NCBI GenBank assembly: GCA_964022095.1
Contig: CAXHZO010000019.1
Span: 1-46,429 of the forward strand
Direction: 5' to 3'
Length of the DNA stretch: 46,429 nucleotides
Source: an uncultured Arcobacteraceae bacterium
Lineage (GTDB): Bacteria > Campylobacterota > Campylobacteria > Campylobacterales > Arcobacteraceae
A program made the position numbers and the translations under genes. Below the pieces are notes generated by a model. The model searched no databases, was not told where the DNA came from, and saw nothing but the letters and a program-made list of their open reading frames with translations. Positions 1-4,349 of the stretch are shown here, in pieces (position 1 is the stretch's first letter; the number at the start of each line of letters is the position of its first letter).

Positions 1-91
1 CTGAACCACCTGAACCAGTATCGCCACCATCTGAACCACCTGAACCAGTATCGCCACCATCTGAACCACCTGAACCAGTATCACCACCATC
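1..91. repeat. 30-bp tandem repeat, at least 3 copies, encoding DGGDTGSGGS on the minus strand
   Basis: ctgaaccacctgaaccagtatc(g/a)ccaccat starting at 1, 31 and 61. Confidence 0.97.
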
Positions 92-694
92 AGGATTATC
101 TAATTTTTCACAACCTCCACCAATAGACATAAAATAACCATCATTACAAGTGCCGTCAGGATTAGTTGAAGGGTCATTAGTACATGAACCATCTATCAAT
201 TGAAAACCAGTTGAACAATCGGGAGTACCATCTTCGTTGAAGCCATCAGAATTTTCAGGTGTAACATCACAAGTACCATTATTATTAGAGTAACCATCAT
301 TACAAGCGATTGAACCATCTTCGTTAAAAAAACCATTATCGGGATTAGGATAATAAACGTCATAAGTACCATCACTTAAACATGTAAATTTACCAATATC
401 AGATACCAAATCAGCAGTACAAGAAGGAGTATTAGTATCGTAATAACCTAATTGAATAGTAAATAATATACCACCAACGCGATATTTCCAAGTAGCAGAA
501 GATTCAACATAACCTTCATATTTTATATGTCCGTGGGCAGAACCCCAAGGAGTAGTAGAAATCTTATTTTTAGGATTGATAAGCCTAACATAAAATGTAA
601 CAAAATCTTGGTCACTCATTTGCTCAAAGCTAGACCAACCACCCGAAAAAGAAAAAGTATAAAATGTAATTAGTATTAATAATATTTTTTTCAT
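1..694 (-). CDS. pIII-like adsorption/minor coat protein, 3'-truncated by window edge (not in ORF track)
   Basis: Manual translation from ATG 694: MKKILLILITFYTFSFS signal peptide, Cys-paired modules (CNDGYSNNNGTC, CSTGFQLIDGSC, CNDGYFMSIGGGC), then (DGGDTGSGGS)n linker; open to base 1. Confidence 0.85.
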   Translation of the reverse strand, partial: MKKILLILITFYTFSFSGGWSSFEQMSDQDFVTFYVRLINPKNKISTTPWGSAHGHIKYEGYVESSATWKYRVGGILFTIQLGYYDTNTPSCTADLVSDIGKFTCLSDGTYDVYYPNPDNGFFNEDGSIACNDGYSNNNGTCDVTPENSDGFNEDGTPDCSTGFQLIDGSCTNDPSTNPDGTCNDGYFMSIGGGCEKLDNPDGGDTGSGGSDGGDTGSGGSDGGDTGSGGS

Positions 695-697
695 AAT

Positions 698-820
698 CTA
701 ACTTTTGATTAAGGCCATAGAACCAAATAAAGGAACTAAGATAAGTGCCATATTGAAAAATATTGAAAAGAAATAATCAAAAACTATATCGTTAGTTAAT
801 TCTATGATAATTAAAGACAT
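698..820 (-). CDS. 40-aa single-TM phage protein (pVII/pIX-like minor coat candidate)
   Basis: MSLIIIELTNDIVFDYFFSIFFNMALILVPLFGSMALIKS*; TAATG overlap with the upstream gene, ends 3 nt before the pIII-like ATG. Confidence 0.75.
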   Translation of the reverse strand: MSLIIIELTNDIVFDYFFSIFFNMALILVPLFGSMALIKS

Positions 821-966
821 TATTTAGAACCTATATTAATTGCAATATAACAAGAAAAGAAAAGGAATGTAAAACCTACAAAAGAACCAGTTAAAGCCAT
901 TAAAAAATTATAATGCTCTAATGATAAACCTAAATAACTACTAATATCAGTAGATGAATATTGCAT
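820..966 (-). CDS. 48-aa single-TM phage protein (minor coat candidate)
   Basis: MQYSSTDISSYLGLSLEHYNFLMALTGSFVGFTFLFFSCYIAINIGSK*; TAATG overlaps at both ends. Confidence 0.75.
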   Translation of the reverse strand: MQYSSTDISSYLGLSLEHYNFLMALTGSFVGFTFLFFSCYIAINIGSK

Positions 967-1091
967 TAATTACCCCTTGCTATATCAATAGCTGATTTAA
1001 TACCAACTAAAACAAAATAAAAAGCAGTTAAAGAACCACATATAGTAAATATATTTTGCGATGAAATATAAAAAGTTTCTAATATTTCCAC
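966..1091 (-). CDS. 41-aa single-TM phage protein with coat-like C-terminus
   Basis: GTG start after AAAAGG; MEILETFYISSQNIFTICGSLTAFYFVLVGIKSAIDIARGN*. Confidence 0.72.
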   Translation of the reverse strand: MEILETFYISSQNIFTICGSLTAFYFVLVGIKSAIDIARGN

Positions 1092-1122
1092 TTTTAAACC
1101 TTTTTGAAAAAAACTTAAAAAT

Positions 1123-1156
1123 AAAAAAAGCCTAGAAGATTTAAACCCTCTAGACT
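1123..1156 (-). terminator. Intrinsic terminator after the major coat gene
   Basis: Minus strand AGTCTAGAGGG-TTTAAA-TCTTCTAGGCT followed by a T-run; the G-U pairs form only on this strand. Confidence 0.8.
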
Positions 1157-1183
1157 TAAAATTAAAAAAGCAAAGAAAAGCTA

Positions 1184-1300
1184 TTATCTAGCCATTCCAA
1201 TAGCTCTTTTAACACCCCATAAAACACCAGTACCAGTAAGTACAAGTACACCAACTGCAACTGCATCAGCAGTATTAAAAACTAAGTTAGTTAAGTCCAT
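1184..1300 (-). CDS. 38-aa major coat protein candidate (pVIII-like, no signal peptide)
   Basis: Strong RBS AAAGGAG; MDLTNLVFNTADAVAVGVLVLTGTGVLWGVKRAIGMAR* has acidic N-terminus, Gly/Ala/Val TM segment and basic C-terminus; double stop then terminator. Confidence 0.85.
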   Translation of the reverse strand: MDLTNLVFNTADAVAVGVLVLTGTGVLWGVKRAIGMAR

Positions 1301-1328
1301 TCCGTCTCCTTTCAAAAGATATAGGTAT

Positions 1329-1554
1329 TAGGCTATAAACCTAAAAAGCTTATATATAAGCTAAGTAGAATAATCAAAGAGGATTACTCTATAAAACTTA
1401 TTACTCAGTTAGAGTTGAGTCAAATTTTCATTAATAGGAAACAAAACTATCAACTCTAGACCTATTTTTACAGTTAGAAGAATCATAAAAAAAGACTCAC
1501 ATTCTGTAAAAATAGGTTAAAGTGGGGACTTACTGAAGTACGGAACATGCCCCA
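1329..1554 (-). other. Non-coding array of stem-loops (candidate origin, packaging signal or structured RNA)
   Basis: 16-bp palindrome 1347-1362; stem 1366-1391; 9-bp IR 1410-1418/1450-1458; 14-bp perfect IR 1460-1473/1504-1517; TGGGG/CCCCA 1523-1554. Confidence 0.6.
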
Positions 1555-1558
1555 AAAA

Positions 1559-1930
1559 TTACTTTATTGATAAAATTTCGTTTTCATCTTGAACTGTTAC
1601 AGATTGACCATCAGTTAGGTTATATTTAATTAATAAATCTTGTGAAATCATTTCATTATATTTTTTAACTAATGCAGGTAATTTATCATCTTCTGTAGGT
1701 ATTCTAATAATCACAGAATTAGCTTTTATAGTAGGTAATTGCATACCGTTTACTTCTTTATAGAAAGTATCTTTAATAATAAATTTTAATTTAATTGAAG
1801 CACCATAATTTGATTTTGCTTGAGTTTGTCTATCTACCATTACACCACTAGCGACAAAGTCTACACCGTCTAAGTGTGCAAAGATATAATTTCCATGTTG
1901 AGTAAGTTCAGTTTTTTTAATGTTAGACAT
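1559..1930 (-). CDS. Probable phage ssDNA-binding protein (pV-like)
   Basis: 123 aa, soluble, beta-rich pattern, RBS AAGGA, directly upstream of the coat gene; function inferred from position only. Confidence 0.55.
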   Translation of the reverse strand: MSNIKKTELTQHGNYIFAHLDGVDFVASGVMVDRQTQAKSNYGASIKLKFIIKDTFYKEVNGMQLPTIKANSVIIRIPTEDDKLPALVKKYNEMISQDLLIKYNLTDGQSVTVQDENEILSIK

Positions 1931-2096
1931 TGATTTTTCCTTTTTTGTAATCTTTTTTAAGCCCTTTAGAGCCGACTATATATTTATAACCTCATTTAAC
2001 ATTTGTATACTTATAGAGATAAAATAAGTATATGTATCAAAAATGATATTTTATTGATACGATTTTTTGATAAAATATAAGTTTGAACATATTGTA

Positions 2097-2174
2097 TAAA
2101 CCAATTTGTTAATTATCAAGTGAATTATATACAAATATGTTTAGTTTGTCAATAAAAATAAACAAATATGTTAA
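2097..2174. promoter_or_regulatory. Three 16-bp quasi-palindromic operator candidates at 31-bp period
   Basis: taaaccaatttgttaa (2097), tatacaaatatgttta (2128), taaacaaatatgttaa (2159). Confidence 0.75.
2124..2152 (-). promoter_or_regulatory. Consensus sigma70 promoter for the phage operon
   Basis: Minus strand TTGACA (2152-2147), 17-bp spacer, TATAAT (2129-2124). Confidence 0.85.
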
Positions 2175-2182
2175 GGAAATTT

Positions 2183-2515
2183 ATGAATTTTGGAAATAGA
2201 CTAATAGAAGTTCGAGAAATACTAGGTTTTAATCAAAACGAATTTGCAGAAAAGTTAAATTTAGCACCACAATCATTAGTTAGATATGAAAAAAACAAAG
2301 TAAAACCTAATATTGAGTTCATCGAAAAATTAACAAATATGTTTAGTGTTAATTCAAATTGGTTATTAACGGGAAAAGGTAAATTAATTATAAAAAATGA
2401 AGAAGAAACAGATTTTAAATCAGAAATTTTAGAAATTTTAGAAAATTTTTCAAAAAAAGAATTAGAATACTTTTATTACCTAATGAAAGCAGAAAATACA
2501 AAAATAAATAAATAA
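2183..2515 (+). CDS. XRE/Cro-CI HTH phage repressor
   Basis: GNRLIEVR..NQNEFAEKL..SLVRYEKNK.KP..NWLLTGKG; RBS AAGGA favours ATG 2183 over 2168. Confidence 0.9.
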   Translation: MNFGNRLIEVREILGFNQNEFAEKLNLAPQSLVRYEKNKVKPNIEFIEKLTNMFSVNSNWLLTGKGKLIIKNEEETDFKSEILEILENFSKKELEYFYYLMKAENTKINK

Positions 2516-2611
2516 GAATGTATATAATACAAATAAAAAAATCACAGTAAAAAAATTTTAATTATTAATTTATAAAAATAAGAATACAATCCCCTAAAAA
2601 AAGGGGGAAAT

Positions 2612-2935
2612 ATGAAAAAATTATTATTATTAAGTTTAATTGGAAGTGGATTACTATTTGGAGATTATAATTCTACAACTTTTAAAAGAGCAAAAGAAAA
2701 CAATCAAAATAATTATAATAAATCTAACTCAATACGTATAAATGGATATATATACAATGTAAGAGAATATAGAGACTATAATGAAATAAGTATAGAAACA
2801 AAAGAACACGGAAGAATAAGATTCAAATCTAAAAGACGATACAAAGAAGGACATAAAGTAAGTGGTTCTTGTTTTAACGAAGAGTATGGATATTATAAAA
2901 GTTGCTATTTAACTCAAGGTAAAAAAATAAGATAA
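2612..2935 (+). CDS. Small secreted hypothetical protein (probable phage accessory gene)
   Basis: 107 aa, signal peptide MKKLLLLSLIGSGLLFG, basic, two C-terminal Cys; RBS and TACAAT -10 upstream. Confidence 0.65.
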   Translation: MKKLLLLSLIGSGLLFGDYNSTTFKRAKENNQNNYNKSNSIRINGYIYNVREYRDYNEISIETKEHGRIRFKSKRRYKEGHKVSGSCFNEEYGYYKSCYLTQGKKIR

Positions 2936-3110
2936 GAATGTTACAAAAAATGAGACAAAAATACTAAATAATACAAGATAATATTAATCAAAGTGATAAA
3001 ACTATTAACATTCTTTAGTATTTAGTAATATACATTTATATTTATGTATTTTATAGCTTATTTTAGATAAAATGTGACCTTAAAATTAATGACAATCATA
3101 GGATAATTTG

Positions 3111-4349
3111 ATGAGTAAAAAAGATATTAACAAAGTAGTATTAGCTTATAGTGGTGGGCTTGATACTTCAATTATATTAAAATGGCTTCAAGACGAATAC
3201 AATGCAGAAGTAATTACATTTACTGCTGACTTAGGTCAAGGTGAAGAAGTTGAACCAGCAAGACAAAAAGCATTAGACTGTGGAATTAAACCAGAAAATA
3301 TTTTTATTTTAGATATTAAAGAAGAGTTCGTAAAAGATTATGTTTTCCCAATGTTTAGAGCAAATGCAATTTATGAAGGTGAGTATTTATTAGGTACTTC
3401 AATTGCAAGACCATTAATCGCTAAAAAATTAGTTGAAATTGCAAATGAAAAAGGTGCAGAGGCTGTATCTCATGGTGCAACTGGAAAAGGTAATGACCAA
3501 GTAAGATTTGAGATTGGTGCATTAGCATTAAAACCAGATGTAAAAGTTATCGCACCTTGGAGAGAATGGGACTTAAACTCAAGAGAAAAACTATTAGGAT
3601 ACGCAAAAGAGCATGGAATTGAAATTGCACAAAAGCACGTTGATGCAGATGGTAATCCAGCAGTAAGTCCATACTCAATGGATGCAAACTTATTACATAT
3701 TTCTTATGAAGGTTTACATTTAGAAAACCCAAATAATGAAGCTGAAGATTCAATGTGGTTATGGACAAACTCTCCTGAAGAGGCTCCTGATGAAGCTGAA
3801 TATATCACTATTGGATATAAAAATGGAGATCCTATTTCTATAAATGGCGTTGAAATGTCACCAGCTACACTATTGGAGTCATTAAACAAACTAGGTAATA
3901 AACATGGTATTGGAAGAATTGATATAGTTGAAAACAGATATGTTGGTATGAAAGCTCGTGGTTGTTATGAAACTCCAGGTGGAACTATCATGTTAAAAGC
4001 TCACAGAGCGATTGAATCAATCTGTTTAGATAGAGAAGAAGCTCACTTAAAAGATGAGTTAATGCCTAAATATGCTAAATTAATTTATCAAGGATATTGG
4101 TTCTCACCAGAAAGAGAAATGCTTCAAGTAGCAATTGATAAAACTCAAGAAAATGTAGAAGGTACAGTTAGATTAAAACTATACAAAGGTAATGTAATGG
4201 TTGCAGGTAGAGAATCTGTTAATTCATTATATTCAGAAGAACACTCTACTTTTGAAGAAGATGAAGTATATAACCAAAAAGATGCAGAAGGATTTATTAG
4301 ACTTAATGCATTAAGATTTATCATCGCAGGTAAAAAGAAAAACAAATAA
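3111..4349 (+). CDS. argG: Argininosuccinate synthase
   Basis: [32 protein letters not shown]. Confidence 0.98.

Follow-up and report, generated by a model that had tools for sequence, protein, structure and literature searches.

At the left end of contig CAXHZO010000019.1 of an uncultured Arcobacteraceae bacterium (GCA_964022095.1, the genome under study, hereafter G000), a row of very small minus-strand genes faces away from a regulatory gene, which raises the question of whether these genes belong to a filamentous phage and, if they do, where the remainder of that phage is to be found. The stretch analysed here, referred to as the window, is 46,429 nucleotides long (G000:C19:1-46429). From the letters of the window alone, an original prediction had proposed an integrated inovirus, and this proposal is borne out by the finding of pI, secretin, replication protein (Rep), integrase and attachment (att) repeats. 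Window positions 1-3070 and a segment at the end of a second contig (G000:C2:370915-377818) very probably constitute a single integrated inovirus with a full gene set, of which the window holds the rightmost third. The element measures 9,919-9,949 bp between att cores over the two joins of the contig ends, and has a G+C content of 25%, against 27% for the remaining window.

The genes that carry this identification lie on C2, where coordinates are given within the locus L005 (G000:C2:360000-377818). The original prediction had proposed inspecting the left flank for pVI and a Zot/pI ATPase, and a pVI-like protein and such an ATPase, whose absence there had been named as a refutation, are encoded downstream of the pIII-like gene. 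Beyond pIII, and on the same strand, the order is pVI-like, pI, pIV, Rep, two open reading frames (ORFs) of 120 and 100 amino acids (aa), a helix-turn-helix (HTH) gene and the integrase:

L005:17001-17819: pIII-like protein, C-terminal 272 aa, ending in a hydrophobic membrane anchor
C2, downstream of pIII: pVI-like protein with multiple transmembrane segments, 140 aa, no family match
L005:15513-16571, minus strand: Zot/pI ATPase, 352 aa; PF05707 at 47.1 bits (cut-off 20.3), phrog_197 at 5.3e-15
L005:14342-15574, minus strand: pIV secretin with signal peptide, 410 aa; PF00263 at 82 bits (cut-off 27.5)
L005:12936-14280: HUH Rep, 430 aa; Phage_GPA at 69.2 bits (cut-off 31.4), REP_ORF2-G2P at 42.1 bits (cut-off 27.8)
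C2, beyond Rep: 120-aa ORF and 100-aa ORF, the latter with a CxxC...C zinc-ribbon-like motif
C2: 83-aa HTH protein, excisionase-like; weak match to phrog_66 (0.0076)
C2: tyrosine integrase; PF00589 at 71.8 bits, phrog_1 at 2e-53
L005:10916-10935 (G000:C2:370915-370934): attL, TTATAGCTTATTTTAGATAA, in the gap from the integrase stop codon to the first codon of an S4-like gene

The morphogenesis ATPase pI/Zot, which is the inovirus marker of Roux et al. (2019) as quoted in PMC11531552, is represented here by a protein that covers positions 1-195 of the 197 in the PF05707 profile and presents a Walker A motif (GIPGAGKS) and a central hydrophobic segment. The element encodes its own secretin, which matches phrog_1012, 'assembly (protein IV of M13)', at 1.6e-34 over residues 1-379, and the HUH Rep, which matches phrog_91, 'nicking at origin of replication', at 7.1e-23, is found in a genome of the small size expected of inoviruses (about 5-15 kb). 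All hallmark genes score above their Pfam cut-offs, are uninterrupted and have the lengths seen in relatives. For the 120-aa and 100-aa proteins, a PDB sequence search returned nothing meaningful. Secretins and P-loop ATPases are also components of type II secretion and type IV pilus systems, and the small proteins of the element lack a family assignment, so that the locus might be read as an integrative island with a secretin/ATPase secretion or pilus module. Such a non-phage origin is highly improbable, given that the ATPase matches the Zot/pI family rather than GspE/PilB, that the secretin finds its best PHROG, over its full length, in that same M13 family, and that no pilin, GspF/PilC or prepilin peptidase gene lies within the att boundaries. 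A rolling-circle HUH Rep, together with an OB-fold protein, the Gly-rich linker of the pIII-like protein and the 9.9-kb size, rounds out the inovirus set.

The assignment of both segments to one element is based on the contig ends, the outer boundaries and the flanking genes. The window starts at a contig end, inside a tandem repeat in the linker of the pIII-like gene, and the terminus of C2 consists of 5.5 copies of the same 30-bp repeat, which is the cause of the break between the two contigs. The repeat and the right boundary within the window are as follows:

1..91, minus strand: 30-bp tandem repeat, 3.0 copies, 98% matches, encoding GGDTGSGGSD-type linker units of the pIII-like protein
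3051..3070, no strand: attR, TTATAGCTTATTTTAGATAA, identical to attL at 20/20 positions, 37 bp upstream of argG

The end of C2 and the start of C19 show exact overlaps of 25 and 55 bp, and the frame of the pIII-like protein continues without a stop over either join, for a total of 485 or 495 aa. In a whole-genome search, the only exact copies of TTATAGCTTATTTTAGATAA in G000 were attL and attR. The right boundary, first placed at 2940, is corrected by attR to 3070, and the att boundaries thereby assign to the element both the XRE gene and a 107-aa ORF (2612..2935). Two other sites, G000:C6:13-32 and G000:C9:24-43, were considered as att copies and discarded, a reversed-pattern control having also given 1+1 matches. 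The ends of C6 and C9 share a 20-mer with two mismatches to the att core and overlap each other, and the resemblance probably arose by chance, in AT-rich sequence where two contigs meet.

The element is flanked by trpD and the S4-like gene on the C2 side and by argG on the C19 side. In 13 of 24 argG loci of relatives, an S4-like gene is located divergently at most 1.5 kb upstream of argG, and trpD adjoins it in 12 of those 13. In G001, a genome of the same genus, 64 bp separate the start codon of argG from that of the S4-like gene, with no insertion between them. The G001 spacer contains an attB-like version of the att core (17/20), and its flanks align on the left with attL and on the right with attR. 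Together, the att repeat, the S4-like/argG neighbourhood of the relatives and the empty site in G001 show that C2 and C19 adjoin, and the vacancy of the site in G001 implies that the element arrived recently relative to the divergence of species.

Related prophages provide an independent view of the gene order. An initial search recovered pI relatives in 8 of 40 relatives' genomes, and the following elements were used for comparison:

L019, contig CAXXLV010000002.1 of an 'uncultured Aliarcobacter sp.' metagenome-assembled genome: entire element on one contig, pI 55% identical
L016 (in G001), L017 (in G003) and L018 (in G023): related prophages in the same bacterial family
L020, IMG/VR record UViG_3300001594_000466: pI 52% identical

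L019, the only named relative found, agrees with the Arcobacter-like host first suggested for the element. L016, L017 and L019 share the order OB-fold protein, 38-39-aa coat, three small transmembrane proteins, pIII, pVI, pI, pIV and Rep; in L019 and L017, an excisionase-like gene and an integrase follow. The three elements are 50-55% identical to the present one in pI and 31-72% in Rep. When 18 prophage proteins were searched with tblastn against 11 loci, the 123-aa protein encoded in the window was recovered in the same three with 29-50% identity, and the four small proteins with 41-78%. Neither the small genes nor the 123-aa gene were found in the other eight loci, which are short windows around a distant pI or, for L018 and L020, end earlier. 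Lack of conservation of the small ORFs had been named as a possible refutation of the original prediction; instead, all four occur together with the 123-aa gene, and in the same order, in L016, L017 and L019, and such conservation sets them apart from chance ORFs. The related prophages differ from the element described here in integration site, repressor and cargo. The G001 prophage also has an extra 454-aa plus-strand ORF between pIV and Rep (L016:4631-5995), which may be an insertion sequence, and the one in G003 has an additional 396-aa ORF beyond Rep, ahead of its excisionase-like gene (L017:3052-4242, on G003:C44); both are absent here.

Public sequencing runs bear on the same question. 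Part of the stretch is contained in ten rows from six studies, labelled as marine, seawater or salt-marsh metagenomes, three of them possibly its source, and contigs of four public runs were aligned to the element. In run X1, a 3905-nt contig covers window 61-3965, crossing attR into argG, and a second contig, of 7527 nt, runs from the C2 side up to the pIII repeat. Depths on the two sides of the repeat are alike (79.7 vs 75.2 in X1; 51.9 vs 56.3 in X2), and in run X4, from another study, the phage part shows at most one difference. A 60-nt cyclic repeat contig at about 4.4 times the flanking depth suggests, as a rough figure, about five to six perfect repeat units in the pIII linker. The join depends on a low-complexity 30-bp repeat in a genome that appears to derive from seawater or marine metagenome runs, and the two halves could in principle stem from different elements or strains, brought together by an assembly illusion through the shared repeat. 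This is very hard to credit in the face of the restored trpD-S4/argG neighbourhood, the identical att cores at both outer ends, the same gene order on the single contig of L019 and the matching depths. In runs X4 and X6, contigs were also seen to follow the phage and then to diverge at window 1181, 2028-2494, 2581 and 2702, one of the variants having other sequence in place of the promoter and repressor at 2028-2494. The samples probably contain circulating relatives of the phage whose regulatory (immunity) module is of another kind.

With the element taken as one inovirus, its structural genes can be assigned within the window. The original prediction had reported five translationally coupled minus-strand genes absent from the ORF track, one of them encoding a signal peptide and a Gly/Ser/Asp linker. 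All five are present (an open-ended ORF of 231 aa and ORFs of 40, 48, 41 and 38 aa), and a default ORF list would omit the small ones, which are shorter than 60 aa, and the other, which is open-ended; the linker corresponds to the 30-bp tandem repeat:

2..694, minus strand: pIII-like protein, N-terminal 231 aa, open-ended; signal peptide, Cys-containing modules, Gly/Ser/Asp linker
698..820, minus strand: protein D, 40 aa, single transmembrane segment, leaderless; minor virion protein candidate, from ORF and conservation
820..966, minus strand: protein C, 48 aa, single transmembrane segment; minor virion protein candidate, 51-74% identical in three related prophages
966..1091, minus strand: protein B, 41 aa, single transmembrane segment, GTG start; paralogue of protein A
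1157..1128, minus strand: terminator-like hairpin, 13 pairs and a T run, directly after the 38-aa gene
1184..1300, minus strand: protein A, 38 aa, leaderless; probable major coat protein, 53-74% identical in three related prophages

The coupling takes the form of 1-nt TAATG overlaps at the junctions between the 41- and 48-aa genes and between the 48- and 40-aa genes, with a gap of 3 nt between the 40-aa and pIII-like genes. Each of the small proteins has one hydrophobic 19-residue stretch (mean Kyte-Doolittle value 1.7-2.2), with an acidic N-terminal and a basic C-terminal side, and four single-transmembrane ORFs of 38-48 aa beside a large pIII-like protein correspond to the inovirus arrangement, in which coat proteins of 30-90 aa are expected. 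The pIII-like protein, which matched no Pfam or PHROG family, has homologues at the pIII position in L019 and L017.

Protein A is probably the major coat protein, as judged from its size, charge, ribosome-binding site, position, leaderlessness and the hairpin behind it. It is located inside a 43-aa ORF with a TTG start (1184..1315) and begins at an internal ATG at 1300, 5 nt after AAAGGAG, the strongest ribosome-binding site of the block; its N-terminus is acidic and its C-terminal tail carries a charge of +3. Two terminator-like sites were found in 3.2 kb, against a shuffle mean of 0.9. No Pfam coat family matched protein A at E<=1, the sole match being Gram_pos_anchor (0.073), and a search of its profile against PDB returned only PscE (0.51). 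Proteins A and B are paralogous by profile-profile comparison (hhalign probability 95.2%, E 2.6e-8, 32 columns), a score inflated by the use of four sequences per profile and by the transmembrane segments. For protein D, comparison of the window gene (698-820) with its orthologues (L019:5930-6121, L016:10118-10303 and L017:10779-10901) reveals a signal peptide, in a segment of about 20 codons, that is present in L016 and L019 and absent here and in L017, a natural indel of an export signal among close relatives.

Upstream of the coat gene are a non-coding spacer and the 123-aa gene that had been noted there in the original prediction:

1301..1558, minus strand: non-coding spacer, 258 nt, folding strongly as single-stranded DNA (-29.6 kcal/mol, z -4.76, 0/200 shuffles as good)
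1559..1930, minus strand: 123-aa protein at the pV position, probable OB-fold (oligonucleotide/oligosaccharide-binding fold) single-stranded DNA-binding protein, from AlphaFold2 model and Foldseek

The 123-aa protein has seven database homologues besides itself. It matches no Pfam family at E<=0.1, its best PHROG is at 0.063 and its PDB sequence search at E=1, so that no sequence match places it in the Ff gene V family. The AlphaFold2 model, built on a 10-sequence alignment, is mostly beta (predicted local distance difference test score, pLDDT, 76.7; predicted template-modelling score 0.61), and the PDB matches listed by Foldseek are PriB, bacterial, organellar and trypanosomal single-stranded DNA-binding proteins and other OB-folds (E 1.7e-3 to 1.7e-2; template-modelling scores 0.29-0.56). 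In BFVD, one match reached E<=0.001, and the named matches are mostly phage single-stranded DNA-binding proteins. Position and predicted fold thus suggest an OB-fold single-stranded DNA-binding protein in the pV role as the probable identity. The 258-nt spacer can be aligned in part with L019, including a common GGGG...CCCC hairpin region, and no Rfam family matched window 1-3200 at E<=0.1. We infer that it is a candidate packaging signal, origin, or both.

The remainder of the window part of the element holds its regulatory genes and a piece of cargo:

2152..2124, minus strand: sigma-70 promoter, perfect consensus TTGACA-17-TATAAT (12/12), facing the structural genes
2131-2141 and 2162-2172, minus strand: exact copies of AACATATTTGT, candidate operators, bracketing the -35 box
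2333..2343, minus strand: third exact copy of AACATATTTGT, within the repressor gene
2168..2515, plus strand: XRE/CI-type HTH protein, 115 aa, divergent from the structural operon; HTH_19 at 6.5e-12, HTH_3 at 9.7e-10
2612..2935, plus strand: 107-aa signal-peptide protein, accessory cargo within the att boundaries

The divergent XRE repressor of the original prediction is recognized in the 115-aa protein, whose matches to phrog_8 (2.1e-17) and phrog_4, 'transcriptional repressor' (3.4e-13), make it the probable lysogeny repressor. The three exact copies of AACATATTTGT, candidate operators, are the only ones in the 46-kb window and all fall within 2131-2343; a repeat search on the plus strand returned no family of direct repeats, only two inverted repeats that are imperfect. 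The 107-aa protein has no family match and no homologue in the related prophages (11 loci, tblastn). Its Atlas model is poor (pLDDT 0.60) and yields scores of at most 0.85, with a small OB-like barrel as no more than a lead.

The gene content of the element combines traits known separately from the classical filamentous phages. With the Ff phages (M13, fd, f1) it shares a block ordered as single-stranded DNA-binding protein, small coat proteins, pIII with its Gly-rich linkers, pVI, pI and a pIV of its own, as well as a terminator after the major coat gene, and its PHROG matches include families named 'protein IV of M13' and 'protein I of M13'. To our knowledge, Ff phages are episomal and possess neither integrase nor repressor; their major coat protein has a leader peptide and follows pVII/pIX, and the gene for their Rep (pII) precedes pV. 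The present element differs in being integrated, in having a leaderless coat as the first of its small proteins and in the location of Rep after pIV, and PHROG and Pfam searches detect no sequence similarity of its structural proteins to those of Ff. The coat of Pf3 is leaderless and 44 aa long, and Pf4/Pf1 are integrative prophages with a repressor and an excisionase. The short leaderless coat thus recalls Pf3, and the repressor, excisionase-like gene and integrase recall Pf4. The Pf phages, as far as we know, have no secretin of their own, in contrast to the element described here. With CTXphi, the element has in common a pI of the Zot family and a divergent repressor beside the structural and replication operon. 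We know of no integrase in CTXphi, which uses the host XerCD at dif. The element does not follow this type of integration, for it carries its own tyrosine integrase and a 20-bp intergenic att in the S4-like/argG spacer, and it has no toxin cargo; 'Zot' is here only the family name of the assembly ATPase.

Closer in taxonomy are the inovirus-like prophages of Sulfurimonas, which, according to PMC11531552, comprise 13-18 genes, grouped into modules for structure, assembly, regulation, replication and integration, and have an att beside the integrase. They share the phylum Campylobacterota with the present element, in a different host family, and the two are likened by description only. That source reports 16 inovirus-like sequences from 15 Sulfurimonas strains together with five uncultivated virus genomes, and places the Sulfurimonas elements in the candidate 'Amplinoviridae', a group without isolates whose hosts include Campylobacterota. 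A figure legend in PMC6813254 likewise lists Campylobacterota among inovirus hosts. The belief that no well-characterised filamentous phage exists for this host group thus holds in one respect and fails in another: no isolated phage was found described for the Arcobacter group in the literature searched, whose published supplementary host lists may include prophages of the family, whereas inoviruses of Campylobacterota have been catalogued in silico (PMC6813254, PMC11531552), and one relative is recorded in IMG/VR. The element accordingly adds a member to a phage group that in silico catalogues already record in this phylum.

Within the family, pI relatives are widespread. A search at E<=1e-10 found them in 29 of 183 other species genomes (30 of 184 including G000), belonging to 12 of 22 genera, with identities of 53-57% in six genomes and mostly at most 36% in the rest; among 50,697 deposited phage records (tblastn, 1e-5), pI had no match. 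The best-conserved part of the element is Rep, with 75-76% nucleotide identity in seven genomes (G121, G062, G073, G072, G071, G116 and G004), and in six of these (G121, G062, G073, G072, G116 and G004) pI is only about 30-35% identical. This disparity suggests that inovirus lineages have exchanged the replication module.

Gene content, order, boundaries and conservation are established, and a phage cycle may be outlined from them by analogy with what is commonly known of the Ff, Pf and CTX phages; excision, expression and virions remain predictions. The tyrosine integrase would insert the circular double-stranded form through the 20-bp core between the S4-like gene and argG, and the XRE repressor would shut the consensus promoter through the AACATATTTGT sites. 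Upon derepression, the integrase and the 83-aa excisionase-like HTH protein would excise the element, the HUH Rep would initiate rolling-circle replication, and the 123-aa OB-fold protein would coat the single-stranded DNA. Extrusion of the DNA would then fall to the pI ATPase and to the pIV secretin that the phage itself encodes, at the membrane, where the 38-aa leaderless coat would displace the single-stranded DNA-binding protein, and the filament ends would be formed by the 41-, 48- and 40-aa proteins, the pVI-like protein and the pIII-like protein of about 490 aa.

Any such cycle would have to operate in a host that carries a spacer against the phage. A family-wide DNA search revealed a 36-nt match to the prophage on contig C11 of G000, which falls in an array of clustered regularly interspaced short palindromic repeats (CRISPR):

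G000:C11:44712-46349 (L050:1213-2850): CRISPR array, 24 exact 36-nt repeats and one degenerate repeat
L055:79-4917: cas genes; cas9, 1168 aa, TIGR01865 at 396 bits; cas1_NMENI at 292.5 bits; Cas2, TIGR01573 at 65.1 bits

With cas9, cas1 and cas2 as its only cas genes, next to the array, and a gene for a Rid-family hydrolase beyond cas9, the locus is by its gene content of type II-C. Counted from the degenerate repeat at its cas-distal end, the array has as its third spacer (L050:1380-1409) a sequence identical at 30/30 positions to L005:15745-15774, inside the pI gene, where the protospacer is followed on its 3' side by TTATTATTTT. None of the other spacers among the 24 matched elsewhere in the genome over more than 22 nt. 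The tailed-phage terminase families TerL_ATPase and Terminase_6N gave nothing in G000, so that these two families reveal no tailed prophage from which an anti-CRISPR might be borrowed, and the only other Zot-family signal in this genome is borderline. In a survey of 225 spacers from ten arrays with this repeat (G000 and 9 of the 19 other family genomes having the repeat), plus 25 spacers from G001, the G000 spacer alone matched any of 13 inovirus targets, which is too few matches to infer a protospacer-adjacent motif (PAM); G000 and G001 have no spacer in common.

G000 fits the rare class of self-targeting genomes described by Roux et al. (PMC6813254), who report self-targeting of a resident inovirus in 45 of 1,429 genomes and suspect non-functional systems or anti-CRISPRs. 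The coexistence of spacer and prophage would find its most ordinary explanation in a protospacer without PAM, next in a silent system and last in an inhibitor. That the phage or the host encodes an inhibitor of the type II-C Cas9 is a rather doubtful proposition, for which the 120-aa gene, the 100-aa zinc-ribbon gene and the 107-aa gene would be the candidates.

Several observations weigh against the reading of the locus as a complete and potentially active inovirus. The halves sit on separate contigs, and the number of 30-bp units is not fixed. The pIII-like, pVI-like, four small and 123-aa proteins have no significant Pfam or PHROG match, for which reason the structural roles rest on position, size, topology and charge, and the Foldseek matches of the 123-aa model are weak, with none in PDB at E<=0.001 and template-modelling scores mostly below 0.5. 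The depth of the two halves in X1 (75.2 and 79.7) approximates that of the host flank (78.2), giving no sign of episomal copies by this weak measure. In the data examined there is no sign of excision, circular forms, transcripts or particles, and the absence of RNA runs among the ten public rows counts neither for nor against activity. In X1 and X2, a loose end that reads into the S4-side flank at window 3051 was considered as an attB contig and rejected: it is the attL contig, placed there by the 20-nt core. The extra depth in bin 3001-3150 amounts to 10.6 in X1 (20 nt at 79.7, over 150 nt) and 8.6 in X2 (20 nt at 51.9 plus 40 nt at 6.32), and no attP loose end occurs among the loose ends listed. 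Finally, a perfect spacer against pI makes double-stranded forms and the prophage itself targetable unless PAM or system fails.

These observations lend some weight to the idea of a prophage that is filamentous by descent and now cryptic, neither excising nor producing virions, and maybe kept for a benefit to the host. A self-targeting spacer beside intact cas9-cas1-cas2 would be more easily borne if no cleavable replicative form ever arose, even if Cas9 would go on cutting the integrated copy, and the run contigs show neither excision nor an episome. Inactivity is nonetheless the less likely case, if one to be taken seriously, since the hallmark frames are uninterrupted and of the length seen in relatives, the att repeats are identical at 20/20 positions, the promoter is a perfect consensus and the empty G001 site points to a recent insertion.

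Regarded as an integrated inovirus, the element provides a fully bounded, complete-looking filamentous prophage annotated for a marine relative of Arcobacter. Its interest lies in this annotation, in the leaderless coat with its paralogue and in the self-targeting spacer, rather than in the existence of such a phage. The one Arcobacter paper found to report such genes, PMC5495459, gives a 'ZOT' gene in 2 of 8 A. thereius genomes and treats it only as a toxin gene, and with pI relatives in 29 of 183 genomes, correct annotation matters for lists of 'virulence genes' in the family. The leaderless coat and the variable signal peptide of protein D offer a natural comparison for routes of membrane insertion. 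The self-targeting spacer, in turn, makes G000 a test case for the survival of an integrated inovirus under CRISPR immunity, and an inhibitor of Cas9, if one were encoded by the phage, would be an inovirus-borne anti-CRISPR of the kind that Roux et al. (PMC6813254) sought without success in ten Pseudomonas candidates.

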